NCBI GenBank assembly: GCA_965202625.1
Contig: CBDBBI010000010.1
Span: forward strand, 640,001-704,000
Length of the DNA: 64,000 nucleotides
Origin: a bacterium
GTDB lineage: Bacteria; UBA8248
Direction of reading: 5' to 3'
Positions 23,489-40,741 of this stretch are shown piece by piece. The position numbers were made by a program, and so were the translations under genes. Within the stretch, counting starts at the first letter, position 1, and each line of letters starts with the position of its first letter. The notes under the pieces were generated by a model. The model did not search any database. It saw nothing but the letters and a program-made list of their open reading frames with translations, and was not told the DNA's origin.

Positions 23489-23960
23489 TTCGGGCGAACA
23501 ATCTACTAATTTCAAGTATTACTTCAAGTTCTACAGGGGCTCCCAACGGGAGTTCAGCTACGCCGACCGCTGTTCTGGCGTGTCGGCCTTTCTCTCCGAA
23601 GATGTCGATAGCCAAATTGGACGCCCCATTCAAGACAAGGGCTTGATCTGTAAAACCTTCCGAAGAAGCCACATAACCACTTATTCGGACGATTCTCTCT
23701 ACATGCTCCAGATCGCCGAGAGCCGCCTTCGCCTGGGCCATAGCATTCAAAAAACAGACCCTGGCACATTCTTGGGCCTGAGCCACGTCGATGACATGCG
23801 AAACTTTTCCCATATAAAGCAATTTGCCGTCTTTTAGTGGAATTTGGCCTGAAATGAACATCAAAGATTGAGAGATGACATATGAAACATACGCCCCGAC
23901 AGGTGTTGGCGCATCGGATAGTTCTATTCCCAATTCATTCATTCGAGTAGAGACGTTCAT
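23481..23960 (-). CDS. RidA family protein (YjgF/Atu1372-like)
   Basis: PVGAYV, ISGQIP, NGASNL...FGEKGRHARTAVGVAELPLGAPVELE; ATGA overlap with the mobA stop. Confidence 0.88.
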   Translation of the reverse strand: MNVSTRMNELGIELSDAPTPVGAYVSYVISQSLMFISGQIPLKDGKLLYMGKVSHVIDVAQAQECARVCFLNAMAQAKAALGDLEHVERIVRISGYVASSEGFTDQALVLNGASNLAIDIFGEKGRHARTAVGVAELPLGAPVELEVILEISRLFARSD

Positions 23961-24580
23961 TTCGTTTTTCCTGTTGCCCACATTGCTTGTATCTTTTCGA
24001 ATTCTTCTTTTGTGTTCGCGTTTAAGAAAGACGCCGCATTTGGATCCCATACTCTCCATGTCGCCTCGTCCACCTTTCTGACACGCGCCTCGGTGTGAAA
24101 ACCTACCATTTTCAAGTCTCCTGTCGAAATGGATTTTTCAATATACGTTTTACATTTTTTCCCGTAAAAAGCACAAAGTGGCTCAGGGTGATTATTTTTT
24201 ATGGGGATAACCACATCCCAATCGTTCACCATGGAGGCGATGCCAGATATGAGATTAGGTTTTAGCAATGGCATATCACATCCCACCACGAAAACATGGG
24301 AGCCTTTAGCGATCGCCACAGCCGAATGCAGTCCCCCCAACGAGTCATAGCCCGGATAAATGTCCCCCACTACGGAAAAACCCATTCGCTGATATTTTTC
24401 TTTTTCGTTTGCTATGACGAAAACTTCTGAAAATATCTCGTCCAAGATGTTTGCTATGTGTTGAATGATGGGAAGTTTCCCAATCTTGAGCATCGATTTG
24501 TTTCGGCCCATTCGGCGACTCTGTCCGCCCGCTAAGATAGCAGCCGAAAAAGGTAATTTACCCTCTGTTTCTGTGCTCAT
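23957..24580 (-). CDS. mobA: Molybdenum cofactor guanylyltransferase
   Basis: ILAGGQSRRMGRNK, LGGLHSA, CDMP, EPLCAFY, FLNANT. Confidence 0.92.
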   Translation of the reverse strand: MSTETEGKLPFSAAILAGGQSRRMGRNKSMLKIGKLPIIQHIANILDEIFSEVFVIANEKEKYQRMGFSVVGDIYPGYDSLGGLHSAVAIAKGSHVFVVGCDMPLLKPNLISGIASMVNDWDVVIPIKNNHPEPLCAFYGKKCKTYIEKSISTGDLKMVGFHTEARVRKVDEATWRVWDPNAASFLNANTKEEFEKIQAMWATGKTK

Positions 24581-24626
24581 GATATGTTTCAGGCAGCGGA
24601 CACACGATCCTGAATCAAATGGTATT

Positions 24627-25898
24627 TCAGGTATGCGTCCGCTCAAGGGAATCCACTTTGAGGCGCTCCACAGGTGTTTCAGTAGATGATTCATTCAACA
24701 GAATCACCTGGACGCGACTCCCAGTGGCGAGTTCTGTTTCAAACTCCGGGAATATGACCAGCCCATTCGCGCGAACCATGGAATGCAATATATTGGAACC
24801 TTGAGCTTCGATTGCTCGGACCACCCACCCTCCTTGCTCTCGGTATGCGACAGAGCGCACATAGTGGCGCCTCTCGGGCGATTTGGTAAGCGGATGAAGA
24901 AGACGCGCCTCTACTGTCGTGCGGAACAACCTTTTTTTGCGTTGCATTTTTAAGAGGGCTGGCCGGACAAACAATTCAAAGCTGACCATTGTGGAAACGG
25001 GATTTCCCGGCAAGCCGAACACAGGCTTGCCATTTAACGTTCCAAAAGCCATCGGCTTACCGGGTTTCATGCGGACACGCCAAAACCGCATATCGTTGCC
25101 AAGACCGCCCAATGTTGATTTGACCAAGTCGAAATCGCCTACCGACACACCGCCACTTGTTATCATCAGATCAGCGACTAGCCCATCATTGATGTGGCGC
25201 TTTAAATCTTCCGGGTTGTCCCGGGCAATGCCCAACAGAGTAGGTATGCCCCCGGCCTCAATAACCTGGGCAGCTAGGGCATAGGAATTAGAGTTGAATA
25301 TCTGCCCAACACGAGGGACATCTCCAAGATCGATCAACTCCTCTCCCGTCGCCAGGATCGCCACCCTTGGTTTTTGATAAACATACGCGCTTGCCCGGCC
25401 GATGTTCGCCAGCATACCAACTGATGCCGGCCCTAAGCTCATTCCTTCCGCGAGAACGGTTTCACCTATCTTCACATCTTCGCCCGACGGCCTAATCGCC
25501 TCTCCTCTCTGAACCTCAAAAAAAACATGAACTTCATCGCTTGAAATTCTTTCCGTCTCCTCAATCAATACAACAGCATCTGCTCCATCGGGAATAGGGG
25601 CTCCCGTCATAATTTTAATTGCATCGCCTGGCCCAACTTTATGCCCCGCTATGACGCCAGCTTGAATCTCTTCTATTACTTTCAACTTCCTGGGAGTTTT
25701 ACGAGTGGCGTTCCTGACGTCCTCCGCCCGCAAAGCGTATCCATCCATCGCCGAATTATTCCACGGCGGGATGGGACTCAATGAGCGCACATCTTCCGCT
25801 AGCACCCTGCCCAAACAATTCAGCAAACCTACTCTTTCTCTACCCATCGGTTGAATGAATTCTAGTATGGCCCTTTGGGCATCTTCTACGCTAATCAT
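24627..25898 (-). CDS. moeA: Molybdopterin molybdotransferase (gephyrin-like)
   Basis: SAMDGYA, IMTGAPIP.GADAV, TGEEL, SGGVSVGD, KPGKP, LPGNPVS. Confidence 0.96.
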   Translation of the reverse strand: MISVEDAQRAILEFIQPMGRERVGLLNCLGRVLAEDVRSLSPIPPWNNSAMDGYALRAEDVRNATRKTPRKLKVIEEIQAGVIAGHKVGPGDAIKIMTGAPIPDGADAVVLIEETERISSDEVHVFFEVQRGEAIRPSGEDVKIGETVLAEGMSLGPASVGMLANIGRASAYVYQKPRVAILATGEELIDLGDVPRVGQIFNSNSYALAAQVIEAGGIPTLLGIARDNPEDLKRHINDGLVADLMITSGGVSVGDFDLVKSTLGGLGNDMRFWRVRMKPGKPMAFGTLNGKPVFGLPGNPVSTMVSFELFVRPALLKMQRKKRLFRTTVEARLLHPLTKSPERRHYVRSVAYREQGGWVVRAIEAQGSNILHSMVRANGLVIFPEFETELATGSRVQVILLNESSTETPVERLKVDSLERTHT

Positions 25899-26459
25899 CC
25901 ACAACTCCAAGCACTCAAAAGAAATCGGCACCATCCTAAATGCAACTATTATAACCTAAGGCGGTCAAGGAACAATCGAAACAACATGCAATTCTAAAAC
26001 GAAACTTCACGTTTGCGAGGTAATGAAATTTTGATTTGAAATGCTCTATGCCCAAATAGGAATTTAAATTTAGATACAAAAGTGAAATACGTGTTCGGTT
26101 TGGAAGGGAGTTGTGTTTACCCATTGGGAAAAGTACGAAAGTGCCCGTCCCTGCCTACATTCACGATGCAATTAGAGAATCCGAATCACAAGCAGACTTT
26201 GAATAGACGTAATCACCTCAAGCGGGGGAGAAAAACACCCAATTGTTCGTATTCCATCACGTAACATTATTAACCAAACGACAACTTACAAATCTCTTTT
26301 CTTTTCAAGTTGTCATGGTCGCTTGCTATAAAAGGTGTTTGGGGCGCAAAAGAGAAAACAGAAGGGGTTGAGTTCGTCTTTGTTTAACGTTAGATAGGGA
26401 TAATGTCTTTTGCGTCGGAGCCGCACAGTATCCCGCAACATACAAAAGGAGGAAGCACT

Positions 26460-27458
26460 ATGAAACTGCTCCAAAGTTCGAGGGGGACCATTAGGATTCT
26501 TACTCTCGCGCTGAGTCTGTTCATCACTGCTGCCCTTGGAGCGGGACAGGCTTTCGCTGAGTGGAAGCCGATGCGCCCAATCGAGTTCATCATTATGGCG
26601 GGCAAAGGTGGCGGTGCGGATCGCATCGCTCGCTTGATGCAAAAAATTGTTACCGAGAACAAATGGTCGCCACAGCCCCTAGTTCCAATCAATAAAAAAG
26701 GAGGGTCTGGTGCTGAGGCCATGCTCTATCTTTACTCCAAGAGAGGTAACCCCCACGTGATTCTCGTTACCTTGAACAGCTTCTTCACCACTCCCGCCTT
26801 GCGAAAACTTCCCGTCAATTACACGAAACTGACGCCAGTCTACAGGTTGGCTATGGACACTTTCCTTCTTTGGGTGAACCCTAAATCAAGGATCAAGAAT
26901 ATCGACGATTTCGTGAAGGCTGTAAAAGCCAAAAAAGGGAAATGGACGATGGGCGGCACAGGGAAAATGCAGGAGGACCAGCTCGTCACCAACATGTTGA
27001 TGCAGGCGTATGGTCTTGAAGGCATGATCACTTACGTGCCTTTCCGTGGTGGGGGCACCGTCGCGAAAAATCTTGCAGGTGGACATATCGATTCCACAGT
27101 GAACAATCCATCCGAGGGACTTCCCCACTATCCGGGCAAAATGAGGCCGATCGCCGCATTGACGCCGGAACGGATTCCTGCATTCGGCGAGGTTCCCACT
27201 TTCAAAGAATTGGGGAAGCCACAACTCGTGTATTTCATGCAACGCAGCATCAATGCGCCTGGAGGCATCTCGAAAGACGCTCTGAACTGGTATGGTGATT
27301 TGTTCTCCAAGCTCTGTAATTCTGACGAATGGAAATCTTATACGAAAGAGAAATCGTTGAATCGCGCTTGTTTGAGCGGCGCTCCCCTCGGGGCATTCTT
27401 CGCCTCTGAGGATGTAAAACACAAGCAACTGCTCAAAGGCATGGGACTGCTGAAATAA
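26460..27458 (+). CDS. tctC: Tripartite tricarboxylate transporter substrate-binding protein
   Basis: Signal peptide, AG.GGGAD..AR, NKKGGSG, VPFRGGG, VPTFKELG; AGGAGG RBS. Confidence 0.9.
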   Translation: MKLLQSSRGTIRILTLALSLFITAALGAGQAFAEWKPMRPIEFIIMAGKGGGADRIARLMQKIVTENKWSPQPLVPINKKGGSGAEAMLYLYSKRGNPHVILVTLNSFFTTPALRKLPVNYTKLTPVYRLAMDTFLLWVNPKSRIKNIDDFVKAVKAKKGKWTMGGTGKMQEDQLVTNMLMQAYGLEGMITYVPFRGGGTVAKNLAGGHIDSTVNNPSEGLPHYPGKMRPIAALTPERIPAFGEVPTFKELGKPQLVYFMQRSINAPGGISKDALNWYGDLFSKLCNSDEWKSYTKEKSLNRACLSGAPLGAFFASEDVKHKQLLKGMGLLK

Positions 27459-27475
27459 CTTGGAGAAGAATGTAG

Positions 27476-27967
27476 ATGCAACGGGCGGATAGGGTTGTCG
27501 CCGTTGGACTGATTCTTCTATCCCTTGGCGTCGCCTGGAAATCAACGGAGCTACCCGTTGGCATCCTCCCCAAAGAGGGGCCAGGAGGAGGATTCCTCCC
27601 CTTCTGGCTCTCTTTGGGGATAGCTGTCGTGTCGTTGCTCATATGGCTTGAATCGCTTTTTTTCTCGAACCGAAAAAAATCCCAAAGAGATGACTCGAAA
27701 ATTTTCGTGAGTAAAGAAGGTTTGCGAGATTTATTGCGCGTTGGCATCCCCAGCATGCTTATGATTCTTCTCGTCCCCATCATCTCCGTGTATTTCTCCG
27801 CATCTCTTTTTATCTTTTATTGCTTGTTCCGCGTCGGACGACACGGATACAGCACAAGCCTCGCCGTATCGGTAAGCGTTCCTGTCGCAGTGTATTACAT
27901 GTTTGAGAAGTTTTTGATTATCCCCTTACCAAAAGGATATTTGGATTTCTTATTTTATTGGAATTGA
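27476..27967 (+). CDS. tctB: Tripartite tricarboxylate transporter small TM subunit
   Basis: GPGGGFLPFWLS, four TM helices, FEKFLIIPLPKG. Confidence 0.88.
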   Translation: MQRADRVVAVGLILLSLGVAWKSTELPVGILPKEGPGGGFLPFWLSLGIAVVSLLIWLESLFFSNRKKSQRDDSKIFVSKEGLRDLLRVGIPSMLMILLVPIISVYFSASLFIFYCLFRVGRHGYSTSLAVSVSVPVAVYYMFEKFLIIPLPKGYLDFLFYWN

Positions 27968-28055
27968 TGATTGTATTCTATTTGCTTCCTTACCATTGAA
28001 AAAAAAGATCTGCGACCGGAAAGGAAAGCGAAATTTATCATAAGGGCCAAACAAG

Positions 28056-29588
28056 TTGGAAATTCTTGGAAATCTATTTTACGGCTTAGGAATTGCACTT
28101 TCTCCTCAAAATCTTTTGATGGCTTTGTTCGGCGTTATCTTGGGCGTTGCTATTGGCGCGATGCCAGGACTGGGTTCTGTAAACGGGGTTGCCATCTTGC
28201 TCCCCATCACTTTTGCCGTTCCTCCTACTAGCGCCATCATATTCTTGGCGGCTATCTATTATGGCGCCATGTATGGAGGCGCGATTAGCTCAATCACTCT
28301 AAATATTCCGGGGGCATCTACCGCCGTTGCGACTACGTTCGACGGTTACCCACTGGCGAGAAAAGGAAAAGCCGCCGATGCCCTTGTCACCGCTGCGGTG
28401 GCCAGTTTTTTGGGCGGAACGTTGTCCATTGTCCTCTTCACTTTTTTTGCACCGCCCCTAGCGGACTTCGCTCTGCGCTTCGGTCCGCCTGAGGAATTCG
28501 CCGTCGTGCTATTGGCCTATGCCACATTTGCGGGATTAGGGGGTGAAAATCCTCTAAAAACGATAATCGCCACCATGCTGGGTCTACTCATGTCCACCGT
28601 GGGTACCGACATCGTGAGCGGCTCGCCACGCCTGATATTCGGAGGCATTACAGGCTTCTATCACGGTATCAATTTTCTCGTTTTAGCGATCGGAATTTAT
28701 GGTATCGGCGAAATTTTTTACACCCTAGAAGAAGGGATGTCCAAAAGAGAAAGGTATCAGACAAAACTCGGGGTCAAAGAGGTCGTCTCTACCTTAAGGG
28801 AACTTTCTAAGTACTCTACCACTATCTTGAGAGGGTCTGTTTTGGGGTTTTTTGTCGGAATGCTTCCCGCCGCCGGCGCAACGCCGGCGAGTTTCATGAG
28901 CTACAGCATCGCCAAAAGATTTTCAAAAAATCCAGATGAGTTCGGTCGAGGCACCATCGAAGGAGTCGCTGCGCCTGAGTGCGCCAATAATGCTGCGAGT
29001 ACAGGGTCGATGCTCCCTATGCTGACCTTGGGAATTCCAGGCTCCCCGACCACGGCAGTGATGCTCGGAGCTTTGTTTGTATGGGGGCTTGTGCCAGGGC
29101 CCCGGTTGTTTGTCGAAAACGCAGAGTTTGTTTGGGGTCTTACCGGGAGCCTCTACATCGCCAACACGCTGGCGGTCATAGTCGCCATTTTCGCCGTTCC
29201 TATTTTCATCTGGATGCTCAGAATGCCCATGACGATCCTTGCTCCGGTCATTCTGGTTGTTTGCGCCGTGGGGGGTTTCTCGCCGACTCAGGATATGTTT
29301 GACGTCTATCTAATGTTCATATTCGGCGCGGTTGGATATGTGTTCCGAAAGCTGGACTATCCCCTTGCGCCGATGGTGTTGGCTTTGGTTCTAGGAGGCC
29401 TTACCGAACGCACTTTTCGGCAGAGCATGATCATGAGCCATGGGAGTCCCGGCATTCTTTTCGATTTTGTGGGACATCCCATCGCAGCAACACTCATGAT
29501 GATTTCCATCGCCTTATTCATCACACCGCTCGTGCCCGTGATTTTCAAACTCAAAATTTCTCGCAAAGGCACGACATCCTCATCCTGA
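28056..29588 (+). CDS. tctA: Tripartite tricarboxylate transporter large TM subunit
   Basis: GAMPGLG, YYGAMYGG, NIPG, APECANNA, LTLGIPGS. Confidence 0.93.
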   Translation: MEILGNLFYGLGIALSPQNLLMALFGVILGVAIGAMPGLGSVNGVAILLPITFAVPPTSAIIFLAAIYYGAMYGGAISSITLNIPGASTAVATTFDGYPLARKGKAADALVTAAVASFLGGTLSIVLFTFFAPPLADFALRFGPPEEFAVVLLAYATFAGLGGENPLKTIIATMLGLLMSTVGTDIVSGSPRLIFGGITGFYHGINFLVLAIGIYGIGEIFYTLEEGMSKRERYQTKLGVKEVVSTLRELSKYSTTILRGSVLGFFVGMLPAAGATPASFMSYSIAKRFSKNPDEFGRGTIEGVAAPECANNAASTGSMLPMLTLGIPGSPTTAVMLGALFVWGLVPGPRLFVENAEFVWGLTGSLYIANTLAVIVAIFAVPIFIWMLRMPMTILAPVILVVCAVGGFSPTQDMFDVYLMFIFGAVGYVFRKLDYPLAPMVLALVLGGLTERTFRQSMIMSHGSPGILFDFVGHPIAATLMMISIALFITPLVPVIFKLKISRKGTTSSS

Positions 29589-29602: not shown

Positions 29603-30496
29603 CTAGATGTCCGTTGCACAGCGAAAACCAATGTTAAAATTCTTATACCATGGCTCGAAACCCTCTCGTGCCGAACATCGTAAACTGTCTTCGATATAAT
29701 CCCAGCCGCAACCACGTGCGACTTTAGCAGTCCAGGCATAACCCGCCCTGCGCGGGAGCCAACCTTCATTATCTCCAAAGCGAATCTTGTAGCTGTCTTT
29801 GTCTCGCTGGAGGATTTCGTAACGCTCACCCCTCTTGACTTCACCGATCCTCAGCGTTCCTCCACCTGGAACCGCAAATACGGGAACCTTCGACATCGCC
29901 ACTTCAAAGGTTGGCCGATCAAGCCCTCGTGGGTTTTTCGAGGGGCCTGTCTGATAATAGAAACCATCAAACCAATCTGAGACCCACTCAAATACGTTCC
30001 CCGCCATCTGCACACACTTATAGGGAGAGGCGTTTTCTGAGAATTCATGCACATTTACGGGGCAATGGATATCAATTCCCGTATAAACAGCTCGTTGATG
30101 AGTAGGTTCATCTTCTCCCCACGGATATTTTCGTCCATCCGTTCCTCGAGATGCTTTTTCCCATTCCGCCTCAGTAGGCAAACGCTTGCCCACCCATTGA
30201 GCATAAGCGTTCGCCTCCTCCCAACTAATGCTGACGATCGGCTGGTTTGGTCCCACGAAATCATCTTTTGAAAATGACGGGGGGGGAGGAAACGCGCTGC
30301 TTCCGTCCAAAAAGGCGCGATACTGCGCATTGGTTACGCAATATTTGTCGATCCAAAAGGCGTCAAGCGTGACCTCGCGTTGTGGTCGCTCGTCTGCGTT
30401 TCCGGTATCTGAACCCATCAAAAATGGACCGGCTGGCACATACAACATCGTAGAGCCGTTTTTCCCTCTTACCTCAGATATTTCATTCATCTCCAT
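29603..30496 (-). CDS. FGE-sulfatase (SUMF1/EgtB/PvdO) family protein with SH3-like insertion
   Basis: F.MGS, VTNAQY, RLPTEAEWEKASRG, MAGNVFEWVSDW, GFRC; about 55 aa beta-rich insert ending EGWLP. Confidence 0.85.
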   Translation of the reverse strand: MEMNEISEVRGKNGSTMLYVPAGPFLMGSDTGNADERPQREVTLDAFWIDKYCVTNAQYRAFLDGSSAFPPPPSFSKDDFVGPNQPIVSISWEEANAYAQWVGKRLPTEAEWEKASRGTDGRKYPWGEDEPTHQRAVYTGIDIHCPVNVHEFSENASPYKCVQMAGNVFEWVSDWFDGFYYQTGPSKNPRGLDRPTFEVAMSKVPVFAVPGGGTLRIGEVKRGERYEILQRDKDSYKIRFGDNEGWLPRRAGYAWTAKVARGCGWDYIEDSLRCSAREGFEPWYKNFNIGFRCATDI

Positions 30497-30531: not shown

Positions 30532-30563
30532 AGAAAAAGGACGGGGCCCCTCCAGGCCCCGTC
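30532..30563 (-). terminator. Rho-independent terminator after the oxidoreductase operon
   Basis: GACGGGGCC-TGGAGG-GGCCCCGTC followed by CTTTTT on the minus strand. Confidence 0.75.
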
Positions 30564-30598: not shown

Positions 30599-31627
30599 CT
30601 ACTTTTCGCTGGGGTCATTCACCTTAAAGGGAATCACTCCGGGAACCATCCAGTCGTTCCACATTTTATCGACTTCCTCTTGGAAGTATTCGTAGTCTTG
30701 ATCCTCGAAATGATGGAAGCGACCCTGCGTCTCCAGATATTCACGAACCAGCTTGCGGGAACGCTTGCCGTATACTTGCCGCGCGGAAATACCTGTATAG
30801 GTGAGCTCCCCATCCATCATCTCCCACAGCGGGAAAAGACCAGTTTCCACCGCCAATTCGCCGAGTTTGTGAGAATAAAAAGGATCATAATCCCAACCCT
30901 TTGGACATGGATCCAGTGTGTGTACGAACGCCGGGCCCTTCACGGCGAGTGCCTTGCGCACTTTGTCAATTAAGTCCGCGGGATAAGAAGCATCTGCTGT
31001 CGCCACATAGTTGCAACGCGTATGTCCGACAGCATACATGGCCGCAATGTTCTTTTTCCAGCAATCATGCATGATGCGAAATTTTTTGCCCGGTGGCGTG
31101 AAGGTCGTGTTCGCACCCCATGGGGATGCTCCTGAAATTTGGATGTCTGTGTTCGCATATGATTCGTTGTCGTAGCAAATGATCGCCAAGTTGTATTTCG
31201 CGTGCATCAGCGCCGCGGATATGGACGATACGCCCATATCGATACCGCCTCCATCTCCGCAGAAAGCGATGACGTTAATCGGCTCTTCCTTCATTTTTCC
31301 CTTTCGCATCAACGCCCGAAGGGCCGCCGCCGTGCCCGTCGCGGCTGAACCAGAGGAGCCCAACTGCGTGTGCATCCACGGCACCACCCAAGGGGTGCTG
31401 TAATACGTGGTATTCGCCACGTACATACACCCCGTGCTTCCCAGGATAATAGAGCGAGGGCCCGCCGCTTTGGCCATGAGGCGCATGATGAGAGCACTCT
31501 CACAACCCTGGCAAGTTCTGTGCCCACTGGTAAAATACTCTTCTACCGCTTTCTGCGGGATTGCATTCACTTTCCCCATCAAGGGAAGTTCTTGTGTTCC
31601 AATGTTGTACTCAGAGGTTTCCGCCAT
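30599..31627 (-). CDS. 2-oxoacid:ferredoxin oxidoreductase beta (TPP-binding) subunit, oxalate oxidoreductase-like
   Basis: GHRTCQGC, TGCMYVANT, GDGG, YDNESYANT, GANTTFTPPG, PCPKGW. Confidence 0.9.
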   Translation of the reverse strand: MAETSEYNIGTQELPLMGKVNAIPQKAVEEYFTSGHRTCQGCESALIMRLMAKAAGPRSIILGSTGCMYVANTTYYSTPWVVPWMHTQLGSSGSAATGTAAALRALMRKGKMKEEPINVIAFCGDGGGIDMGVSSISAALMHAKYNLAIICYDNESYANTDIQISGASPWGANTTFTPPGKKFRIMHDCWKKNIAAMYAVGHTRCNYVATADASYPADLIDKVRKALAVKGPAFVHTLDPCPKGWDYDPFYSHKLGELAVETGLFPLWEMMDGELTYTGISARQVYGKRSRKLVREYLETQGRFHHFEDQDYEYFQEEVDKMWNDWMVPGVIPFKVNDPSEK

Positions 31628-31629
31628 GA

Positions 31630-32844
31630 TTAATCCCTCACTCCGATCCAACCGACTTCGTTGTCGGCGCTATCGTTATGGACGATGGAAAATACTTTAT
31701 CAGCCATCAATTTGACGTCTTCAAGCAATACTTCTCGGCCACCGAGGCCACAAACAAATCCTTTCATGTAAGGCGCCTTTTCCGCCCCATACATAGCGGC
31801 TTTCACTTCATTAAAAAGGATACCACCATGATAGGGTGAACCGAAAGAATAGTCGCGGTCAATAACGCCGACTGCCTTGAAGCGCGAAAGCGATTCTCGC
31901 AACTCTTCCGTCGGGAATGGGCGAAACCATTTTAGGCGAACCAGTCCAACTTTTTTGCCTTCTTTGCGCATTTCACGGATGGCGACTTTCACCGGCAGGC
32001 TGAGTGTCCCCATGCCGCAAAACACCACATCTGCATCGTCAGTCATATATTCGTCAAGGAATGGATTCGTGTCCGCACCAAAAATTCTATTAAAATCAGC
32101 ATGGGCTTCCTTCAACACGGTGTAAGCATTTTTGGCCGCCTCGCTGCTTTGACGTCTCACTTCCATGAGCCAGTCTTCATTCGCCTGAGGCGCGATGGTG
32201 ATGGGATTGTCTGGATGAAGGAGCAAGTCGCCCCTATCATAGGGAGGAAGGAATTGATTGACTTCTTCTTGGCCAGGCAACCGTACCGTCGCCTGGCTGT
32301 GCGTCAAGAACGCTCCGTCCATCGCAATGGCACATGGCAGATAGACCCTAGGGTCTTCTGCGATGCGATACGCCAATAAACCAAGTTCGACGACTTCTTG
32401 TGCCGTGTCCGGAAAATTGATCATCCAGCCCAAATCACGAACGAGCATAGCATCATTGTGCTCGGTGCCAAATGCACCCGGATCATCTAAGGCGCGACAA
32501 CCCACCAACGCCACCATGGGCAGACGTAAGCCGGCCGTGACAGCCAGCGGCTCCATAGCATAGAGCCATCCCACGCCGCTCGAGCCTGTGAATACGCGCG
32601 CGCCGCAGGCTGATGCGTGTTTTACAATTTCAAACTGGCCATGCTCGCTCTCCGCCGGAATATAATCCGCGTCGAAATCACCCTCCGCGATAAACTTGGA
32701 AACATATTGCATCACCGTATCATACGGCCTGATGGGATATGCCGTAATAACATCCACGTCGGCAAGGCGGCAAACATGCGCCATAACCTCACTTCCAGTG
32801 AGGAGATGTACCCCCGCACCTTTTTGTTCAGTTGTCGTCGTCAT
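31630..32844 (-). CDS. 2-oxoacid:ferredoxin oxidoreductase alpha subunit, oxalate oxidoreductase-like
   Basis: AYPIRPY (Arg replacing the PFOR Thr of YPITP), ESEH, TGSSGVG, FRPFP, GLGGRE. Confidence 0.9.
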   Translation of the reverse strand: MTTTTEQKGAGVHLLTGSEVMAHVCRLADVDVITAYPIRPYDTVMQYVSKFIAEGDFDADYIPAESEHGQFEIVKHASACGARVFTGSSGVGWLYAMEPLAVTAGLRLPMVALVGCRALDDPGAFGTEHNDAMLVRDLGWMINFPDTAQEVVELGLLAYRIAEDPRVYLPCAIAMDGAFLTHSQATVRLPGQEEVNQFLPPYDRGDLLLHPDNPITIAPQANEDWLMEVRRQSSEAAKNAYTVLKEAHADFNRIFGADTNPFLDEYMTDDADVVFCGMGTLSLPVKVAIREMRKEGKKVGLVRLKWFRPFPTEELRESLSRFKAVGVIDRDYSFGSPYHGGILFNEVKAAMYGAEKAPYMKGFVCGLGGREVLLEDVKLMADKVFSIVHNDSADNEVGWIGVRD

Positions 32845-32857
32845 CTGTTCGCTCCTA

Positions 32858-34045
32858 TTAAAGCTCTTTTAGAGATTTTGTTTTCGCCGTCTCTGAGTTG
32901 TGTCCCGTGTCGAGACCCGCCCCCGAGAACGCTTCCGCGAGGCCGGTGATCGGGTGCCGGCCATCTATCTTTCCATTGCTGATTTTCTCGTCCATATATT
33001 TTGTGTATTCGCCTTTGTCCTCGCACCACATTTGGTATTGACTATCCCGTTCTTCAAAAACGACCTCATTCACCATCGTGATGCAATCCTTGACAGGACA
33101 AATGGCTTCGCATACGCCGCAGCCGCAGCAAGCTTCCATGTTGGCGTCGAAGAAGCCATCCGGAGTTACATCGAAACAAGTGTCTGGACATGCAATCCAG
33201 CAAAGGGTGCACTTCGTGCATTTGTCAAAAGACACTATGGGGCGCATGGTTCGGGTCGACCATTTTTTGAAGTAGGGATTACGGCCCGGTTCATAGCCAC
33301 CATTACCGCCCCTGAAACCCTCATGGCCCCCTACCCCGTCAATGACGACGCCTTGGCGCATTTCGTGCCACTTCAAAAGCTCAAACGTGAAGGGAACTTC
33401 GTCGTTGCCTTGGCCCGGTTCTATTTCCACGGGCCGTAAGTCCTCATAGACCTCGCGCGCGGCCTCTACGTGCGTTTCGGAGCCGATGTTCTCGCGAATG
33501 GCCGATTCCAAAGACGCCATGGAGCACATGCTCGGCTCGGCCTTAAGAGCCGCCCCTAAACACCGCGCGTCGGTGCCGTCATCTTTATACACCCAGAGGC
33601 CGGCAAAGCTTGGGTCACTGTTGATGACCGCAAGTTTATAAGGTGCTTCTCTACGATGAATATGTTTGACGAGTTCATCTTCCTTTTTTGTTGACGTAAC
33701 GATAAGCGTGCCGCCGGGTTTTGTCACAGCGTTGATTGGCTGAAGCCCATACCACGCCCAGGATTCCACGCCTTTACAGAGCGTATCGTCTACGCAGATG
33801 GAAATATCTACTTGCTTAGGCTCATATTGCGCTGCCACGGACTCGAGCTCTTCCTCATTATCCGCGATGTACCCAAATTGCTTTGCCGGAATTCCATTTC
33901 GTTCGGGCGAATCGCTGTATCGTCCGAATGAAATTCCTGGTTTACCTTCCTTCACAGCCGCAAGAATTAAGGAGCGAGAAATGTTCACTGCAAGTTTTTT
34001 CTGAAAAATACCTCGGTAGATCACTTCAAATGATATTACGCTCAC
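32858..34045 (-). CDS. 2-oxoacid:ferredoxin oxidoreductase fused gamma/delta subunit (2x4Fe-4S)
   Basis: N-terminal domain III (YSDSPERNG.P) fused to CTKCTLCWIACP and CCGCGVCEAICP. Confidence 0.88.
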   Translation of the reverse strand: MSVISFEVIYRGIFQKKLAVNISRSLILAAVKEGKPGISFGRYSDSPERNGIPAKQFGYIADNEEELESVAAQYEPKQVDISICVDDTLCKGVESWAWYGLQPINAVTKPGGTLIVTSTKKEDELVKHIHRREAPYKLAVINSDPSFAGLWVYKDDGTDARCLGAALKAEPSMCSMASLESAIRENIGSETHVEAAREVYEDLRPVEIEPGQGNDEVPFTFELLKWHEMRQGVVIDGVGGHEGFRGGNGGYEPGRNPYFKKWSTRTMRPIVSFDKCTKCTLCWIACPDTCFDVTPDGFFDANMEACCGCGVCEAICPVKDCITMVNEVVFEERDSQYQMWCEDKGEYTKYMDEKISNGKIDGRHPITGLAEAFSGAGLDTGHNSETAKTKSLKEL

Positions 34046-34057: not shown

Positions 34058-34903
34058 CTACTTGGAAATTGATGAAATGAAACTTTTTGAAGATTTCCAC
34101 GAAATCGAGTTGCCCGTGTTGCGGTTGCGAATTCGTCGCATGTTCTCATTTGGACGCCTTTCGACCTCATTGCCTTCAGCCTCAACGAGGTGGCTAATCA
34201 TTCCGGCACTCGCCCTGTTTCTATCGCTAGTGAGAACGGCTTCCAAAATCTCTTCGTGCGCTTCCCATGAGCGGAAGCGAACGCTTTTATCACGAAGCGA
34301 ACGCTCTCTGATCTCACTTAGCGAATTTAGCAAGGTACTCAACAAATGGTGCAAAAATTTGTTTTTGGCGGCTTGTGCAAGGCCCAAGTGAAATTTGGTG
34401 TCCTCCTCCAAACCAAGGCCCCCACCTTCTATCTCATCACGTTGATGCCGGAGCGTGCTCTTAAGTTTTTCCACTTCCTCATTTGTTATACGCTCAGCGG
34501 CTAAAGTGGTGATTTGAGGCTCCAGAACCATGCGCGCCTCGAAAAGATGGTGGACTCCATCCTCTGTGTCGGATGACATTTTTTCAGAAATCATAGGAAC
34601 CATGGATTCGGGTTGCGCCGTGACGAATGTCCCTTCTCCTTGTCTCGTCTCTACCAGCTTAGCGGATTCCAATGAGCGCGTTGCCTCTCGAACTGAATTC
34701 CGGCCAACGCCAAATTGTTCACACAGCTCCCTCTCGGATGGCAACTTATCGCCGGGCTTGATTTCACCTTCCAGTATCAAGGACGTGAGTTGAGCGACTA
34801 TGGCCTCATAGACGCGAGTTTTTTTTACTATCTGCAACCTCTCGTGAATGACCAAAACAAATTCCTCGGACACATATTGTAAAAGCATATTATAGACTAT
34901 CAC
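34058..34903 (-). CDS. FadR/GntR family transcriptional regulator (true start probably downstream)
   Basis: KPGDKLPSERELCEQFGVGRNSVREA, GEGTFV, FCD domain (D..FH, H..I). Confidence 0.92.
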   Translation of the reverse strand: MIVYNMLLQYVSEEFVLVIHERLQIVKKTRVYEAIVAQLTSLILEGEIKPGDKLPSERELCEQFGVGRNSVREATRSLESAKLVETRQGEGTFVTAQPESMVPMISEKMSSDTEDGVHHLFEARMVLEPQITTLAAERITNEEVEKLKSTLRHQRDEIEGGGLGLEEDTKFHLGLAQAAKNKFLHHLLSTLLNSLSEIRERSLRDKSVRFRSWEAHEEILEAVLTSDRNRASAGMISHLVEAEGNEVERRPNENMRRIRNRNTGNSISWKSSKSFISSISK

Positions 34904-34922: not shown

Positions 34923-35103
34923 GCTATTTTAGAACAAGTCAACAAGTCTCAAAGGTAGTCAATCTGAAATAGAGGAGTTTTCGATCATTCCTGAATTTTG
35001 TTTGATTACATTCCTGTTGGCTTTGATGCTAGAGTTCTCCTTTCCCGCTTTGCTATGTTTCCCTCTCCGACAAAAAACAAAAAAGATGTGAAGCCTTGAG
35101 AAA

Positions 35104-36203
35104 ATGGCAAATTCTCACTTTGCTTACTATCGGGCACGCTTTTGAACATTGGTACTAAGGCGTTTTAGGGCCTATTATCCCTATCTGACAGCAGACTTGG
35201 GTCTTACGTTGAACCAGGTGGGACTACTATTTACTGGCAGAGCCGTGATGAGCGCTTTTAGCAGTGTGGGTACAGGCTACATCATCGATCGTTACGTTGG
35301 ATGTATGGCTTCCGTTGCGTTGTTTTATGGCGGAGCAAGTTTTGCGAATGGATTTCTCACGGTGGCCCCCGTCATATGGTTGAGCGGATTGGCGACGCAC
35401 ACCTGGCATCCACCAGCCATGGGTCTACTGGGAATACGCTTTAAGAACCGAAAAGGCTTTGCGCTAGGCGTGCACGGAACGGGCGCGAACATGGGACAGT
35501 CCCTTGCCCCCATCATCGCAGGTTTCCTGCTCCTGGTGATGAACTGGCGAGGGGTGTTACTATTGAACACTGTTCCCTTGTTCGCCACGGCAATGCTTTT
35601 GTGGATTTGCCTAAAATCCTTTCACCTCAATGGAAATCAAAAGCCTAACGTCTCCGTTCATCCGAGCAATTTCAAGAATGCGCTCCAAGAATGCGCTCAT
35701 CAAAAACCCAGGCATAATTCGTATTTGCTTCTTATAGAGCATAAGGATACTGGCGCATAACGTGACGTTGATTTTTACTTCCGATATTGCTACTGAGGAA
35801 ATATAGGGTAGGGCCAAGCTTCTTGGGCATTGCGATTGGCGTATATTCGGCGGCGTCCATATTTCCAGAAACAATCGTTGGCTATCTCTCTGACAGGATG
35901 TCAAGAAAACTGATTTTGTCTGTGGGAATCGCCGCCGGTGGAATATCGATGCTCATGACTCCTCGTATGGGCACAGGAATTGTATTATACGGTTGCCTTG
36001 CTTGTGTCGGTGTTTTTCTCACCTCTATGCGCTCCGCTATTTTTGCATACGGATGCTCATGGCTTCGAATTCGCTTTTGGGGCGATCGGCATATTGTGTC
36101 TGGGAAGTTTATCTGCTTTTTTATGGTTGCCTGGAATAGAGGGAGAATCAGGTTTTCGACGCCCAGCCGTCAGCCAAGGAGATTCTGCACACCCATTTCT
36201 TAG
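35104..36203 (+). pseudogene. MFS transporter pseudogene
   Basis: Fragments LLTIGHAFEHWY*GVLG, LGLTLNQVGLL, HTWHPPAM...GFALGVHGTGANMG, GYLSDRMSRK in different frames; boundaries approximate. Confidence 0.8.
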
Positions 36204-36224: not shown

Positions 36225-39200
36225 GTGAACGGGCAGATTCACAAGCATTTGGTGGTTGCTCATATAGAGAGATTATTGGCCGGTGGCGCGCTTACTCCAA
36301 CGGCGAAAGATATCCTCATTTCCATTGGCGTCACCGACCCAGCAAGCATAATCAGAAACCTCCAATCTTTAGCATTGCACCCGGCTTTTCCACGTAATAA
36401 CTCTAAGTTTTTAGAGCAGCTGTTATGCTCTTTGAGCGATACGTTCGACCCAGAACGCGCTCTGAGCAACTTTGAACGAATTTTAGCGACTCTCGATAAG
36501 CCAGATTCGTTTCTGAAAACCCTCAACCGCTCGGATGAACGCCGAACAGAGTTCTTCGCATTAGCAGGTGGAAGTCAGTTCTTGACAGAAACAATCCTGC
36601 GGCATCCTCGTTTTCTCGACTGGCTCTTGCGACCAAATACATTAAAAGCCGTTCGCACCAAAGAAAAAATGGAATCTGATCTATGGCGCTGGGTTTGCGA
36701 TAACAACGATTCCCTGAATGGGACTGAGAATGCAATGCGCCGATTTCGCCAGCGGGAATACTTAAGAATTGCGATATTGGATTTGATGCGTCAGGCGTCT
36801 CTCCAAGAAATCACCTCCAGCCTTTCTCATTTGGCCGACGCTTGTCTAGAAGTGGCGGTTCGAATTGCCAGTAATGAGCTTCAGAAAAAATATGGAAAGC
36901 CCCAACATAAAGACATAGGCGGGAGATGGAGAGATACCAAGTTCAGCGTCATAGGTTTGGGCAAACTCGGTGGGCTCGAGCTTAACTTTAGTTCAGATAT
37001 CGATTTGTTGTTCATATATTCATCAGATGACGGTCAAACGTCCGGGGCTGTAGATCCATTGACGGGGAAAAGAAAAAGAAGGATCACGAATCACGAATTT
37101 TTCGCCCACCTGGCTCGACGCATCATATCCTTGATGGGCAAGAATACCGAAGAGGGTCATGTATTTCGAATAGACATGCGTCTGCGACCCGAAGGCGCCC
37201 AAGGGGCATTGGCATATTCGCTTAGGAGCTGCGAGGTCTACTACGAGTCTTGGGGAGAAACATGGGAGCGGCAGGCGTTCATCAAAGCGAGACATTGCGC
37301 GGGTTCTGCCGCCTTGAGCCATTCATTTTTGAAAATGATGCGTCCCTTCATATACCGGCGAACACTAGACATAAGCGTCATCACGGAAATCGGAATCATC
37401 AAAGATCGCATCAACAGAAACTTGAAGGGTTCGGATGCAACCACGCGAAACGTAAAACTCGGCGAAGGCGGCATTCGGGAAATTGAATTTATTACCCAGG
37501 CTCTACAAATCATCTACGGCGGACGAGAAACCCTTCTTCAAAACTCAAATACATTGGAGAGTCTCTCCATCATAGAGGCGATTGGCCTTTTACCCAAGAA
37601 TGAGTGCGATGCGCTTTCGCGCGCTTATATATTTCTCAGAGGTGTCGAGCATCGCGTGCAAGTCACGCACGGGCTTCAATTGCACGAGGTGCCAACTGAT
37701 GAGAAAGATTTGACCGTGCTCGCCCGCAAAATGGACTGCGCGGGGAGCAAAGACTTCAAATCCCAACTCACATATCACCAAAATAATGTGTCAAGAATAT
37801 TTGAAAACATGTTTCGCAATGGGAATGAAGATGAACAAGCAGACGCAACGAGCGATGAGCAATCCCCGGCGCTTACTTTAGGAGATTCCCTATCTACCGA
37901 AGAGCTGGCCTCATATAATTTTGCAGACCCAGAAGACGTGAGCAGGCATCTAAAACTCTTGAGGAACGGCGCATCGCTCGAACATGTCAGCGCCAAGGCG
38001 AAGCGGATATTCGATGAGCTCCTCCCTCGCCTTCTCCATCAAACCCTCGAACTCCCGGAACCGGATAGAGCTGTCGCACACCTCAACAAATTTGTGGACC
38101 AGGGAGGAGGGCGTGAATCTATCCTCGGGTTTATGGCTGAGCAAGAGGAATCGCTGGAAATCATTCTTAAACTATTCGCTTCAAGTAATTATTTGTCTGA
38201 AATTCTGATTTCCCAGCCCGGACTACTTGAAACCCTCTTTCAAACCGAAACCCTCTCCAGGCCGCGCTCAAAAGAACTCCTCGCCTCTGAAATGGAGAAA
38301 ATAAGGGACGCGAAAATCTCGACAGAGGATAAATTTAACCGTCTGCACGTTGCGAAAAAAAGCGAAGAACTCGCGATAGGCATCAGAAGCCTCCTTGGGG
38401 CGGCAGATATTTTAGAAACTTTATCTGCCCTCTCTCATCTTGCGGAGGAAATTCTGAAGAGTGGCTATGCGATAGCACGCGAAAGAATGCTCAAACTCTA
38501 TGGCACTCCGATTGAGTCAGAGACGGGAAAGGAAGCACAATTCGTGATTATCGGCCTCGGCAAGTTAGGAAGCGGAGAGATGAATTATGGTTCAGATTTG
38601 GACTTGATATTTGTTTACAGCGCTTTAGGGAAAACGAATGGGCAAATCAATGGGAAAAGTTCTAAATACAAGCCCATTATAAATCATGAGTTCTTCATCA
38701 AAATGTGCACGTGTTTACGCGATGGCTTGGCCGCGTCAAGCGGTCGAGAACGAACTTACGAAATAGACTTTCGATTACGACCTGAGGGGAAAAAGGGGCC
38801 ATTGACGGCGCCGATGGAAAGCTTCACAAATTACTTTATGGGACGTGCCGAAACTTGGGAAAGACAAGCGTTTACAAGAGCAAGTTATGTTACAGGATCG
38901 CAAATGTTCGGCTCAGAATTTATGAGGCTTGTTGACGAATTCGTATATGAGAAGGAGGTCCCTGAACAATTTTCCGCACAGGTTCATCATATGCGCAAAC
39001 GCATTGAAACGGAATTGTCTCGTGAAGACGAGGCAATCATGGACATTAAGCTCGGGCGTGGCGGGATTATCGATATTGAATTTTTGACTCAATATCTCCT
39101 TATTCAAAATGGAAAGGCGCATACCGAGATTCGGGTTCCAAATACCTATCTTGCTCTCCAAGCGCTAAATAAAGCGAGGATACTCACGGACAAAGATAGC

Positions 39201-39461
39201 GCTGCATTACTGGATGGCTACCGCTTCTTACGACTTGTTGAGAACCGCCTCCGCATAGGCAACTCCCAGTCCATCAATATATTCCTCAAAGCACCGCGCT
39301 CGATGAGTATGTTGGCGCGGCGAATGAACTTTGTGGATGATATTGATGGAAGCGCTCACGCCAAGTTCCTGGCTGCATACGAGAAAAAAACAGGTCTTAT
39401 AAGAGAAGTATATGAAAAAGTGATGCTCGGAAGAAACAATCATTTCACGGACATTGTCTGA
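36225..39461 (+). CDS. glnE: Bifunctional glutamine synthetase adenylyltransferase/adenylyl-removing enzyme
   Basis: Two NT domains: GLGKLGGLELNFSSDIDL...DMRLRPEG and GLGKLGSGEMNYGSDLDL...DFRLRPEG; KLG.GGI.DIEF twice. Confidence 0.96.
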   Translation: MNGQIHKHLVVAHIERLLAGGALTPTAKDILISIGVTDPASIIRNLQSLALHPAFPRNNSKFLEQLLCSLSDTFDPERALSNFERILATLDKPDSFLKTLNRSDERRTEFFALAGGSQFLTETILRHPRFLDWLLRPNTLKAVRTKEKMESDLWRWVCDNNDSLNGTENAMRRFRQREYLRIAILDLMRQASLQEITSSLSHLADACLEVAVRIASNELQKKYGKPQHKDIGGRWRDTKFSVIGLGKLGGLELNFSSDIDLLFIYSSDDGQTSGAVDPLTGKRKRRITNHEFFAHLARRIISLMGKNTEEGHVFRIDMRLRPEGAQGALAYSLRSCEVYYESWGETWERQAFIKARHCAGSAALSHSFLKMMRPFIYRRTLDISVITEIGIIKDRINRNLKGSDATTRNVKLGEGGIREIEFITQALQIIYGGRETLLQNSNTLESLSIIEAIGLLPKNECDALSRAYIFLRGVEHRVQVTHGLQLHEVPTDEKDLTVLARKMDCAGSKDFKSQLTYHQNNVSRIFENMFRNGNEDEQADATSDEQSPALTLGDSLSTEELASYNFADPEDVSRHLKLLRNGASLEHVSAKAKRIFDELLPRLLHQTLELPEPDRAVAHLNKFVDQGGGRESILGFMAEQEESLEIILKLFASSNYLSEILISQPGLLETLFQTETLSRPRSKELLASEMEKIRDAKISTEDKFNRLHVAKKSEELAIGIRSLLGAADILETLSALSHLAEEILKSGYAIARERMLKLYGTPIESETGKEAQFVIIGLGKLGSGEMNYGSDLDLIFVYSALGKTNGQINGKSSKYKPIINHEFFIKMCTCLRDGLAASSGRERTYEIDFRLRPEGKKGPLTAPMESFTNYFMGRAETWERQAFTRASYVTGSQMFGSEFMRLVDEFVYEKEVPEQFSAQVHHMRKRIETELSREDEAIMDIKLGRGGIIDIEFLTQYLLIQNGKAHTEIRVPNTYLALQALNKARILTDKDSAALLDGYRFLRLVENRLRIGNSQSINIFLKAPRSMSMLARRMNFVDDIDGSAHAKFLAAYEKKTGLIREVYEKVMLGRNNHFTDIV

Positions 39462-39484
39462 CGTCCATTTTCAAGCGCGCATGT

Positions 39485-40741
39485 GTGTTTGTCCCCCTTG
39501 AAACCAGAGGCTTCGAGTTGATAATCAATACCGATCGTTTTCGCAAGTCCATGGAAGACATGGCGAGTATCGGAGCGACGAGCAGAGGCGGTGTGCACCG
39601 CCTCACCCTTTCGGAGGAAGATAAAAAAGCCAGGGAATTATTCGCTCATTGGGCAAATGATGCTGGGCTCTCTGTGCGGGTCGATGAGATGGGCAATATG
39701 TTCGCCAGACGGGCAGGTCAAAACGATGATGCCTATCCAATCATGGTTGGAAGCCACCTCGACACTGTGCCTAAGGGGGGGCGATTCGATGGATCCTTAG
39801 GCGTTTTGGCTGGATTGGAAATCATACGCACTTTGAAGGATAAAAAGATATCGACCAAGCGCCCGATAGAGATCGTAAACTGGACAAACGAGGAGGGGGC
39901 CAGATTTCCACCGGCTATGCTTGGAAGCGGCGTATTTTCGGGTCGGATATCACAGGAATTCGCGTATGAATTAAGAGATAAGGAAGGAGCAAATTTTCTT
40001 GGCGAGCTAGAATGCATCGGCTACCGTGGAAATATGCCTTGCGCACCAAGGCCCATTGCGTCCTATGTTGAACTCCACATTGAGCAAGGCCCCGTTCTTT
40101 TAGAAGAGGGCAAACAAATAGGTATTGTGGAAGGAATTTTTGGTATCTCGTGGCTTCGCGTCACTATGCGGGGAGAACGAGACCATGCAGGCCCCACGCC
40201 GATGCGCATGAGACGCGATGCTTTGGTAGGCGCGGCGCGCGTAATTTCGGCGATTCGCGATATCCCTAGAAAACTGCATCAGGACTTCGTGGCTACAGTT
40301 GGAGAACTATTTGTGTCTCCCAACGCCATAAATGTGATTCCTGACGAAGTGATATTCTCAATCGATTTTCGACACAACCAGCCAGAAATGCTGGATGTCG
40401 CATTCGAACTCGTCAAAGAAGCCGCATTCAGAGAAGCAAAAAAGGAAAACCTGAAAATCGAGATTGAGGACATCGGCTCATCTACTCCCATAGCATTCGA
40501 CATGAACGTTAAAGAAGCGATCGCAGCTGCATGTAGGGGGGCAAACTATAGCCATCGATACTTGTGGAGTGCTGCTGGCCATGATGCCCGCTATGTGGCT
40601 GAACTTGGGCCGACTGCTATGATTTTTGTCCCTTGCGTTGCCGGAAAAAGTCATTCAGAAGCAGAGGACATGGATTGGGAGGACGCGCATAGGGGTTGTG
40701 AAGTTTTAGCGCAAACATTGATAAAATTGGCTAATTCGTGA
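39485..40741 (+). CDS. Zn-dependent M20 hydrolase (N-carbamoyl-amino acid/allantoate amidohydrolase family)
   Basis: GSHLDTVP.GGRFDG, NEEGARF, ELHIEQGPVL, HAGPTPM, SAAGHDA, GKSH. Confidence 0.92.
   Translation: MFVPLETRGFELIINTDRFRKSMEDMASIGATSRGGVHRLTLSEEDKKARELFAHWANDAGLSVRVDEMGNMFARRAGQNDDAYPIMVGSHLDTVPKGGRFDGSLGVLAGLEIIRTLKDKKISTKRPIEIVNWTNEEGARFPPAMLGSGVFSGRISQEFAYELRDKEGANFLGELECIGYRGNMPCAPRPIASYVELHIEQGPVLLEEGKQIGIVEGIFGISWLRVTMRGERDHAGPTPMRMRRDALVGAARVISAIRDIPRKLHQDFVATVGELFVSPNAINVIPDEVIFSIDFRHNQPEMLDVAFELVKEAAFREAKKENLKIEIEDIGSSTPIAFDMNVKEAIAAACRGANYSHRYLWSAAGHDARYVAELGPTAMIFVPCVAGKSHSEAEDMDWEDAHRGCEVLAQTLIKLANS

Follow-up and report, generated by a model that had tools for sequence, protein, structure and literature searches.

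An operon for an oxalate-oxidoreductase-type enzyme was found in a 64,000-nucleotide stretch of bacterial DNA (contig CBDBBI010000010.1, positions 640,001 to 704,000; hereafter the window, in whose numbering coordinates are given unless another locus is named). Three adjacent, intact minus-strand open reading frames (ORFs) at 30599-34045 encode the fused, alpha and beta subunits of a 2-oxoacid:ferredoxin oxidoreductase (OFOR), according to the ORF listing and Pfam. The best solved relative of every subunit is the oxalate oxidoreductase (OOR; 5c4i) of Moorella thermoacetica, which we take to be EC 1.2.7.10. The family placement is secure: the enzyme is of OOR type and not a pyruvate:ferredoxin oxidoreductase (PFOR), and it lies outside the OOR family as NCBI defines it. 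It belongs to a clade in which alanine replaces the OOR active-site residue Asp116, and the comparative evidence leans towards an enzyme of OOR type that oxidises oxalate with its electrostatic switch rearranged; the substrate is deduced from conserved residues and gene neighbours.

To our knowledge, the only characterised OOR is that of a single thermophilic acetogen. The sister clade is at least as abundant in public data and has no Asp116, yet it is wired to oxalate transport genes. Natural variation therefore offers a direct test of the proposed OOR mechanism: Asp116 can be dispensed with or replaced, or else the clade enzymes do different chemistry. There is also a consequence for annotation: metagenome surveys of carbon fixation and fermentation count genes of the clade as pyruvate synthase, and surveys of oxalate degradation overlook them; one survey explicitly excludes OOR in a passage of its text (PMC8062136).

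Subunits and active-site residues

The features of the operon, all on the minus strand, are:

32858..34045, delta subunit, 395 amino acids (aa), with a divergent domain III, a 2x[4Fe-4S] ferredoxin domain (V) joined to it in one chain, and a C-terminal tail
33743..33766, delta domain-III insertion ESWAWYGL, residues 94-101, not in Moorella OOR
33185-33220 and 33095-33130, the two CxxCxxCxxxCP motifs of delta
31630..32844, alpha subunit (domains I-II), 404 aa; Pfam POR_N 2e-58, PFOR_II 4e-29
32722..32739, alpha YPIRPY, residues 36-41 (Arg39 = OOR Arg31), followed by the clade-specific Asp42
32470..32496, alpha switch-loop equivalent RALDDPGAF, residues 117-125 (Arg117, Asp120, Asp121, Ala124, Phe125)
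30599..31651, beta subunit (domain VI, thiamine-diphosphate binding and proximal cluster), 350 aa from TTG; Pfam TPP_enzyme_C
31511-31525, beta GHRTC
31409-31435, beta TGCMYVANT
31148-31174, beta YDNESYANT
31139-31153, beta NTDIQ, where OOR reads NTGIQ
31088-31117, beta GANTTFTPPG

For beta, an ATG at 31627, which has a GGAG-type ribosome site and lies 2 bases past the alpha stop, is the likelier start than the TTG. Residues 272-324 of delta correspond to Pfam Fer4_21, a two-cluster ferredoxin domain, and the N-terminal ~250 residues gave no Pfam match at all, nor any to POR (PF01558) at E ≤ 0.001.

In phmmer searches, alpha matched 5c4i_A with 337 bits (E = 9e-100) versus 214 bits for the PFOR chain 9bt4_B, and beta matched 5c4i_C with 283 bits (E = 3e-83) versus 204 bits for 9bt4_C. 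Delta matched 5c4i_B over residues 8-331 with 78 bits (E = 4e-21) versus 58 bits for PFOR 9bt4, the latter over the ferredoxin part only. Chance resemblance to OOR is excluded by these E-values. The second-best solved match, the PorABGD-type PFOR of Methanosarcina acetivorans (9bt4), has a common superfamily and cofactor set with the operon, but it has the Thr of YPITP, beta motifs TGCLEVMTT and DNEAYMNT, and separate gamma and delta chains. PFORs of this type are coenzyme A (CoA)-dependent. In contrast, the alpha chain (I-II), beta chain (VI) and fused III+V chain occur both in the operon and in Moorella OOR (5c4i, 5exd, 5exe), from which the delta subunit differs by its length (395 versus 315 aa), a Trp-rich insertion, and a longer linker and C-terminal tail. 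An AlphaFold2 monomer model of delta, built from 30 clade sequences and used for fold comparison only (mean predicted local confidence, pLDDT, 76; predicted template-modelling score 0.68), was closest in the PDB to delta chains of OOR, which took the first eight places (E 7e-21 to 3e-17; target template-modelling score 0.72-0.80). PFOR gamma subunits came next, over domain III only and with E 1e-10 or weaker. A search with domain III in a protein-cluster atlas gave leads below 0.9 to POR-domain clusters and one nameless cluster at 0.93.

Curated family models agree on the nearest relative. The top NCBIfam model for each subunit is an OOR equivalog (NF045791, NF045792 and NF045790), with scores below the respective cut-offs (alpha 374/500, beta 336/590 and delta 98.6/230 bits). 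Next come the PorA, PorB and Vor models, which also remain below cut-off (PorA 328/550, PorB 280/405 and the best gamma-type model 28/335 bits). The cut-offs of the models for NADH-dependent phenylglyoxylate dehydrogenase are likewise not reached (PadG 268/700, PadI 148/700, PadE 25/300 and PadF 48/150 bits).

The alpha active-site loop aligns to that of OOR without gaps, with R109-T-L-D112-P-P-G-D116-F117 opposite R117-A-L-D120-D121-P-G-A124-F125, so that Ala124 stands at the position of Asp116. The equivalents of OOR Arg31, Arg109, Asp112 and Phe117 are retained, and the loop still has two aspartates because OOR Pro113 is replaced by Asp121. A passage in a secondary source (PMC5020499) describes Arg31-alpha of YPIRP as the binding site for negatively charged oxalate, and gives Arg31 and Asp116 important roles in the OOR bait-and-switch mechanism; statements on mechanism made here draw on this one passage and on general knowledge of the enzyme.

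The loop was compared across a set of 80 loci (L001-L080), which are the best 80 of 487 encoding stretches found by scanning one genome per species, all of them metagenome-assembled genomes (MAGs). RALDDPGAF is present in 78 of 81 alpha ORFs (the 80 loci and the window), the other three being fragments of 208-283 aa that do not include the region, and in 120/120 database homologues, and is thus fixed in all 198 readable clade members. YPIRPYD occurs in 119 of the 120 homologues and YPIRPYN in one, where the OOR clade has YPIRPYT. Conversely, Asp116 is present in 116/116 readable members of the OOR clade (a search with the OOR-type representative P0129, 119 sequences, three loops being unreadable by pattern).

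When 191 query-clade and 93 OOR-clade alpha sequences were compared by column, 106 columns were at least 95% conserved in both, of which 76 are the same and 30 are fixed differently. The latter include, in OOR numbering, T34D, T110A, P113D, D116A, T122N, S64E and G68H, and further I175S, P214E, Q216W and Q221R; T34D is the residue after YPIRPY, query Asp42. In beta, the pocket motifs GHRTC, TGCMYVANT, YDNESYANT and GANTTFTPPG are identical to those of OOR (5c4i_C) and unlike those of PFOR, and all cluster cysteines of the enzyme are kept. Beta NTDIQ, which comes just after and holds the one fixed change there, is found in 74/80 clade members, the other six falling outside the pattern, and NTGIQ is common to OOR and PFOR 9bt4. 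Judged from these alignments, the clade has lost one active-site acid and gained three close to active-site motifs (alpha 42, alpha 121 and beta NTDIQ), and the enzyme genes are intact and under strong constraint.

The delta insertion ESWAWYGL falls in a gap of ~9 residues in OOR (5c4i_B alignment). Its E94, W96, W98 and G100 are invariant in 30/30 aligned clade members. The monomer model has pLDDT below 50 at residues 93-100, as would be expected of a loop that becomes ordered in the complex only.

Much of this had been anticipated in a preliminary description of the window made from its sequence alone. The OOR subunit architecture that it proposed is borne out by the ORFs, by Pfam, by the 5c4i_B alignment and by the delta model, and YPIRPY and all of the beta motifs that it listed are present at the computed positions. 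The Moorella loop RTLDPPGDF with Asp116, which it quoted, agrees with 5c4i_A, and the alanine that it placed opposite Asp116 proved to be a fixed character of the clade.

Extent and phylogeny of the clade

A word-indexed search with alpha returned more than 100 clusters at 64-89% identity, named from Nitrospinota, Tectomicrobia, NC10, Binatia, Deltaproteobacteria and Armatimonadota. Where the sources name them, the name is always 'pyruvate ferredoxin oxidoreductase (alpha subunit)'. In the locus set, the nearest loci to the window (92-94% identity) include Nitrospinota/Nitrospinaceae, so that the window very probably comes from Nitrospinota. Carriers of the clade belong to at least nine named phyla. 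In contrast to the thermophilic acetogen from which the characterised OOR comes, the named carriers are mostly of soil and marine lineages (Nitrospinota, Acidobacteriota, Myxococcota and Pseudomonadota), many of which are presumably aerobic.

An exhaustive search of 50%-identity representatives yielded 107 matches of at least 360 aa, among which Arg at the YPITP position is found in four groups only. The query type comprises P0121, P0122, P0136 and P0153, along with P0155 by its loop only, and the OOR type (...DRTLDPPGDFG...) comprises P0129, P0190, P0217 and P0230. The third and fourth groups are single representatives, P0130 (FPIRPYT, ...LDDPGNF...) and P0270 (LPIRPTT, ...LDQPGSF...). The NCBIfam OOR alpha cut-off of 500 is passed by P0129 (583 bits) and P0190 (533 bits), and is failed, at 262-399 bits, by P0121, P0130 (385), P0270 (262) and the alpha subunits of L056 and L060. 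P0129 aligns to 5c4i_A without gaps (512 bits) and is 42% identical to the window alpha; it served as a stand-in for Moorella OOR, whose own sequence is outside the tree.

A quick IQ-TREE analysis of 66 alpha sequences included the window, 12 loci, P0121, P0129, P0190, P0130, P0270 and the first 48 full-length YPITP-type representatives, and left out fragments, P0136, P0153, P0155 and P0211. A branch with 97% support in the Shimodaira-Hasegawa-like approximate likelihood-ratio test (SH-aLRT) set all 18 Arg-type rows apart from the others, and the 14 query-clade rows grouped together with 99%. A more careful tree of 39 rows (10 of the query clade, 15 of the OOR clade, P0130, P0270 and 12 YPITP outgroups) separated Arg-type from YPITP-type proteins with ultrafast bootstrap/SH-aLRT values of 100/97. 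In this tree the query clade (10/10 rows) has 100/100 and the OOR clade (15/15) 100/99. The query clade joins P0130 with 100/95, and that pair is sister to the OOR clade with 96/84. The window alpha is therefore placed outside the clade of the characterised enzyme, and none of the features that would mark a PFOR or Vor enzyme (the YPITP Thr, clade membership, PF01558 or curated scores) was found in the operon.

The preliminary description had proposed an uncharacterised sister clade that annotation pipelines would mislabel as pyruvate synthase, and had named clustering with canonical PFORs, beforehand, as an outcome that would speak against it. No such clustering was seen, as the 100/97 branch lies between, and the clade support and source names are as it had foreseen. 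Overall, the clade is abundant, phylogenetically coherent and mislabelled. In the searchable literature, which left subscription journals and the primary OOR papers outside the search, no description was found of the clade or of an OOR without Asp116.

Like the query clade, P0130 and P0270 fall together with OOR in the 100/97 split and have a position 116 that is not Asp, but they have Asn or Ser there and other loop residues differ; both are below the OOR cut-off and on long branches, as is P0190 in the careful tree. L027 and L053 are contigs attributed to the same MAG, each with a query-clade operon (alpha 66% and 64% identical to that of the window), and therefore some genomes may hold two paralogous copies. 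In two acidobacteriotal loci (L058, ~7971-9201, and L075, ~7944-9084), alpha is split into two overlapping ORFs by a frameshift or an assembly error.

Gene neighbourhood and candidate substrates

Operon structure is well conserved, with beta after alpha in 79 of the 80 loci and the fused subunit before alpha in 73, most of the misses being at contig ends. A GntR/FCD regulator homologue is directly upstream in 54/80 loci, across phyla. Clustering of all locus ORFs gave one further widespread neighbour, a major facilitator superfamily (MFS) protein of ~520 aa, four representatives of which pass the NCBIfam oxalate/formate antiporter equivalog TIGR04259 (505-528 bits versus 335). A homologue is present in 30/80 loci; in 22 of these it is encoded on the same strand as the operon and starts no more than 400 nt past it, and 66 loci have 1.5 kb or more of sequence on the downstream side. 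The distribution of the antiporter homologue by phylum is:

Acidobacteriota, 15 of 22 loci
Myxococcota, 11 of 16 loci
Actinomycetota, 1 of 2 loci
Pseudomonadota, 1 of 11 loci
Nitrospinota, 0 of 11 loci
loci without a phylum name, 2 of 13

In L065, two enzyme genes lie just upstream of the operon: a formyl-CoA transferase (TIGR03253, 712 bits versus 504) and a thiamine enzyme of the acetolactate-synthase/HACL/oxalyl-CoA-decarboxylase family, which is below all cut-offs. Homologues of both, 54% identical, occur in L078, and the transferase is thus present in 2/80 loci. The likeness to the Oxalobacter-type system of OxlT, formyl-CoA transferase and oxalyl-CoA decarboxylase is one of gene neighbourhood only (30/80 loci; L065 and L078). 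That system decarboxylates a CoA thioester with no electron output, and it accompanies the operon rather than being homologous to it. In the window itself, a tripartite carboxylate transporter is convergent with the operon:

26403..29588, plus strand, TctC-TctB-TctA (Pfam TctC, TctB, TctA)

A TctA homologue is found in 21/80 loci, including 6/11 named Nitrospinota, and TctABC would be a candidate substrate importer in the window lineage (Nitrospinota).

Because the arginines are conserved, the beta pocket is identical to that of OOR, and antiporter and formyl-CoA transferase genes recur as neighbours, we infer oxalate as the substrate. Independence from CoA, a relocation of the catalytic acid and the nature of the regulator's ligand are likewise parts of the proposal. 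The complex is probably a heterotrimer that forms a dimer of trimers, with thiamine diphosphate and three [4Fe-4S] clusters. In the proposed mechanism, oxalate would be taken up, held by Arg39 (YPIRP) and Arg117, and decarboxylated on thiamine diphosphate. Two electrons would then pass via the cluster chain to a ferredoxin-type acceptor, with CO2 released and no acyl-CoA formed. The electrostatic push that completes catalysis would come from elsewhere than Asp116, the fixed Asp42 and Asp121 and the beta NTDIQ Asp being candidate replacements. The operon would be co-transcribed with, and presumably governed by, the GntR/FCD regulator as a sensor of small carboxylates. Oxalate or another small anionic 2-oxoacid had been the suggestion of the preliminary description, and the antiporter equivalog and the two formyl-CoA transferases give it further, independent backing; the link to the antiporter does not extend to Nitrospinota.

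Several observations weigh against oxalate oxidation. Asp116 is replaced in every readable clade member, 30 of the 106 conserved alpha columns differ from OOR, and all three subunits score below the OOR cut-offs; in the literature searched, no assayed clade member was found. The antiporter is missing from the window lineage, which has TctABC instead. The substrate of the antiporter is itself uncertain, because three of the four homologues also reach or approach the cut-off of the L-lactate MFS transporter model (336, 332 and 327 bits versus 320, with an overall range of 288-336). Furthermore, an oxalate/formate antiporter can work only if there is formate to export, which the OOR reaction does not produce, and an adjoining formyl-CoA transferase suits a formyl-CoA-forming enzyme equally well.

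The main rival is a CoA-dependent OFOR acting on another small 2-oxoacid, foremost glyoxylate (yielding formyl-CoA and CO2), with mesoxalate, hydroxypyruvate, oxaloacetate and sulfopyruvate as others. Such an enzyme is possible, if distinctly less probable than an oxalate oxidiser. Loss of Asp116 would then reflect the lack of a second decarboxylation to drive, and a formyl-CoA product would give formate for the neighbouring antiporter to exchange. In an alignment to Moorella PFOR (6cin), Ala124 falls opposite the Ile of an SIFG stretch, presumably equivalent to Ile123 of Desulfovibrio PFOR, which we take to line the pocket for the pyruvate methyl group; since that Ile would contact the substrate side group, the Ala124 position is a plausible specificity determinant. 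Domain III is the CoA-binding domain in PFORs, and its strong conservation in the clade, with many invariant columns, suggests that it has a function. The transferase and HACL/OXC-type enzymes of L065 and L078, adenosine monophosphate (AMP)-forming CoA ligases in five loci and a flavin mononucleotide (FMN)-dependent enzyme in L054 (see below) would suit glycolate, glyoxylate and formyl-CoA metabolism, and the missing antiporter in the window lineage would fit this or another small anionic 2-oxoacid. However, domain III of the clade has no Pfam POR match, and it reads YRGIFQK where, as we take it, canonical gamma subunits carry a glycine-rich motif; OOR is equally degenerate there. The neighbour met most often is an oxalate/formate antiporter equivalog and not a glycolate or glyoxylate system, and the beta pocket motifs are the same as in OOR. 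In addition, the YPIRP Arg, described as oxalate-binding in the OOR passage (PMC5020499), is invariant, and glyoxylate would offer it nothing to pair with.

An ordinary pyruvate (or 2-ketoisovalerate):ferredoxin oxidoreductase is what the database names imply, and the sub-threshold likeness of the regulator to PdhR and LldR, together with PorA, PorB and Vor as second-best models, points the same way. This is nevertheless extremely improbable, as the 100/97 branch puts the gene with OOR, apart from all 12 or 48 YPITP-type proteins sampled, with Arg where YPITP has a conserved Thr. It is below every Por/Vor cut-off, domains III and V are fused in its third subunit, which has no POR-domain match, and pyruvate-metabolism genes are not conserved beside the operon in the loci. 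A mainly reductive or redox-balancing role, for instance CO2 reduction or a carboxylation driven by reduced ferredoxin, is scarcely more credible. OFORs are reversible in principle, and many carriers are autotrophs or belong to lineages with ferredoxin-dependent CO2 fixation; a passage of one paper names Nitrospinota among users of the reductive tricarboxylic acid cycle (PMC13147460). However, the conserved pairing with a GntR/FCD regulator and importers (antiporter, TctABC) is the mark of a substrate-inducible catabolic module, and no carbon-fixation genes are conserved beside the operon in the loci.

Oxalate oxidation, if it is the true activity, would make the capacity for one-step oxidation of oxalate in soils and oceans much wider than recorded. 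A more far-reaching and rather doubtful proposal is that the clade represents an oxygen-compatible oxalate (or glyoxylate):ferredoxin oxidoreductase of distinct mechanism, which would provide very low-potential electrons directly to mostly aerobic soil and ocean bacteria. The relocated acids and the Trp loop would together replace the Asp116 switch, and in nitrite-oxidising Nitrospinota, where CO2 fixation relies on ferredoxin-dependent enzymes of the reductive tricarboxylic acid cycle, a scavenged C2 acid would yield the reduced ferredoxin for which nitrite is no source.

Two less frequent neighbours may bear on substrate supply and electron transfer. In L054 (Dehalococcoidia), an FMN-dependent 2-hydroxyacid dehydrogenase/oxidase (10435-11532, plus strand; Pfam FMN_dh 5e-120) directly follows beta, with an AMP-forming CoA ligase close by, which hints at a feed of 2-oxoacid from glycolate or lactate. 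In five proteobacterial loci, the operon adjoins a GltD-like flavoprotein of the glutamate-synthase small-subunit type, which could pass the electrons of the enzyme to NAD(P)+ rather than to free ferredoxin:

L065:5075-6457
L067:10957-12333
L071:2-1117
L074:5192-6589
L080:10642-12018

Operon boundaries and other features of the window

Two further minus-strand features flank the enzyme genes:

34058..34903, minus strand, GntR-family regulator with FCD ligand domain; Pfam GntR 6e-25, FCD 3e-24
30540..30563, minus strand, terminator-like hairpin with a 10-bp stem, 8 G-C pairs and a T-rich tail, 36 nt past the beta stop

The regulator gene ends 12 nt before the delta gene on the same strand, and its nearest NCBIfam models are NanR, LldR and PdhR, each below cut-off. 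It is the probable sensor and repressor of the operon. The hairpin, found by a consensus scan alone that gave 8 sites versus 5.9 expected in shuffles, is the probable end of the operon. Because the regulator lies so close upstream on the same strand and the hairpin follows beta, regulator-delta-alpha-beta is the likely transcription unit. A tandem direct repeat, GACTTGTT GACTTGTT, was seen by eye at 34933-34948 (minus strand) and may be an operator. It is directly upstream of the best promoter-like match before the regulator (34918-34889, 10/12), and no inverted repeat was found upstream of the regulator gene.

On the upstream side, the window and its close relatives have an MFS gene of another family and then GlnE. 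The MFS gene of the window (35090-36183, plus strand), between the regulator and GlnE, is broken into five pieces in frames 2-1-2-3-1, as seen by tblastn with the intact L001 orthologue. It is either a multi-frameshift pseudogene or a run of indel errors; the enzyme genes beside it are intact. Beyond the hairpin, an FGE-sulfatase-domain protein is encoded at 29603-30496 (minus strand; 297 aa, domain residues 15-182, the C-terminal part having no assigned domain), and a paralogue is present 18 kb off at 48675-49403 (minus strand). Homologues occur in 18/80 loci, mostly in Nitrospinota, Tectomicrobia or loci closely related to the window.

GlnE, an M20 amidohydrolase and a polysaccharide-deacetylase-family gene occupy 36225-41641 (plus strand) on the upstream side, the last of them with no match in any of the 80 loci. 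Beyond the Tct genes, MoeA and a MobA-like molybdenum-cofactor gene lie at 23957-25934 (minus strand). Synteny with the operon is seen for each of GlnE, M20, MoeA and MobA in ~10-14 of the 80 loci, mostly close relatives of the window, and this neighbourhood is probably lineage synteny rather than a functional link.

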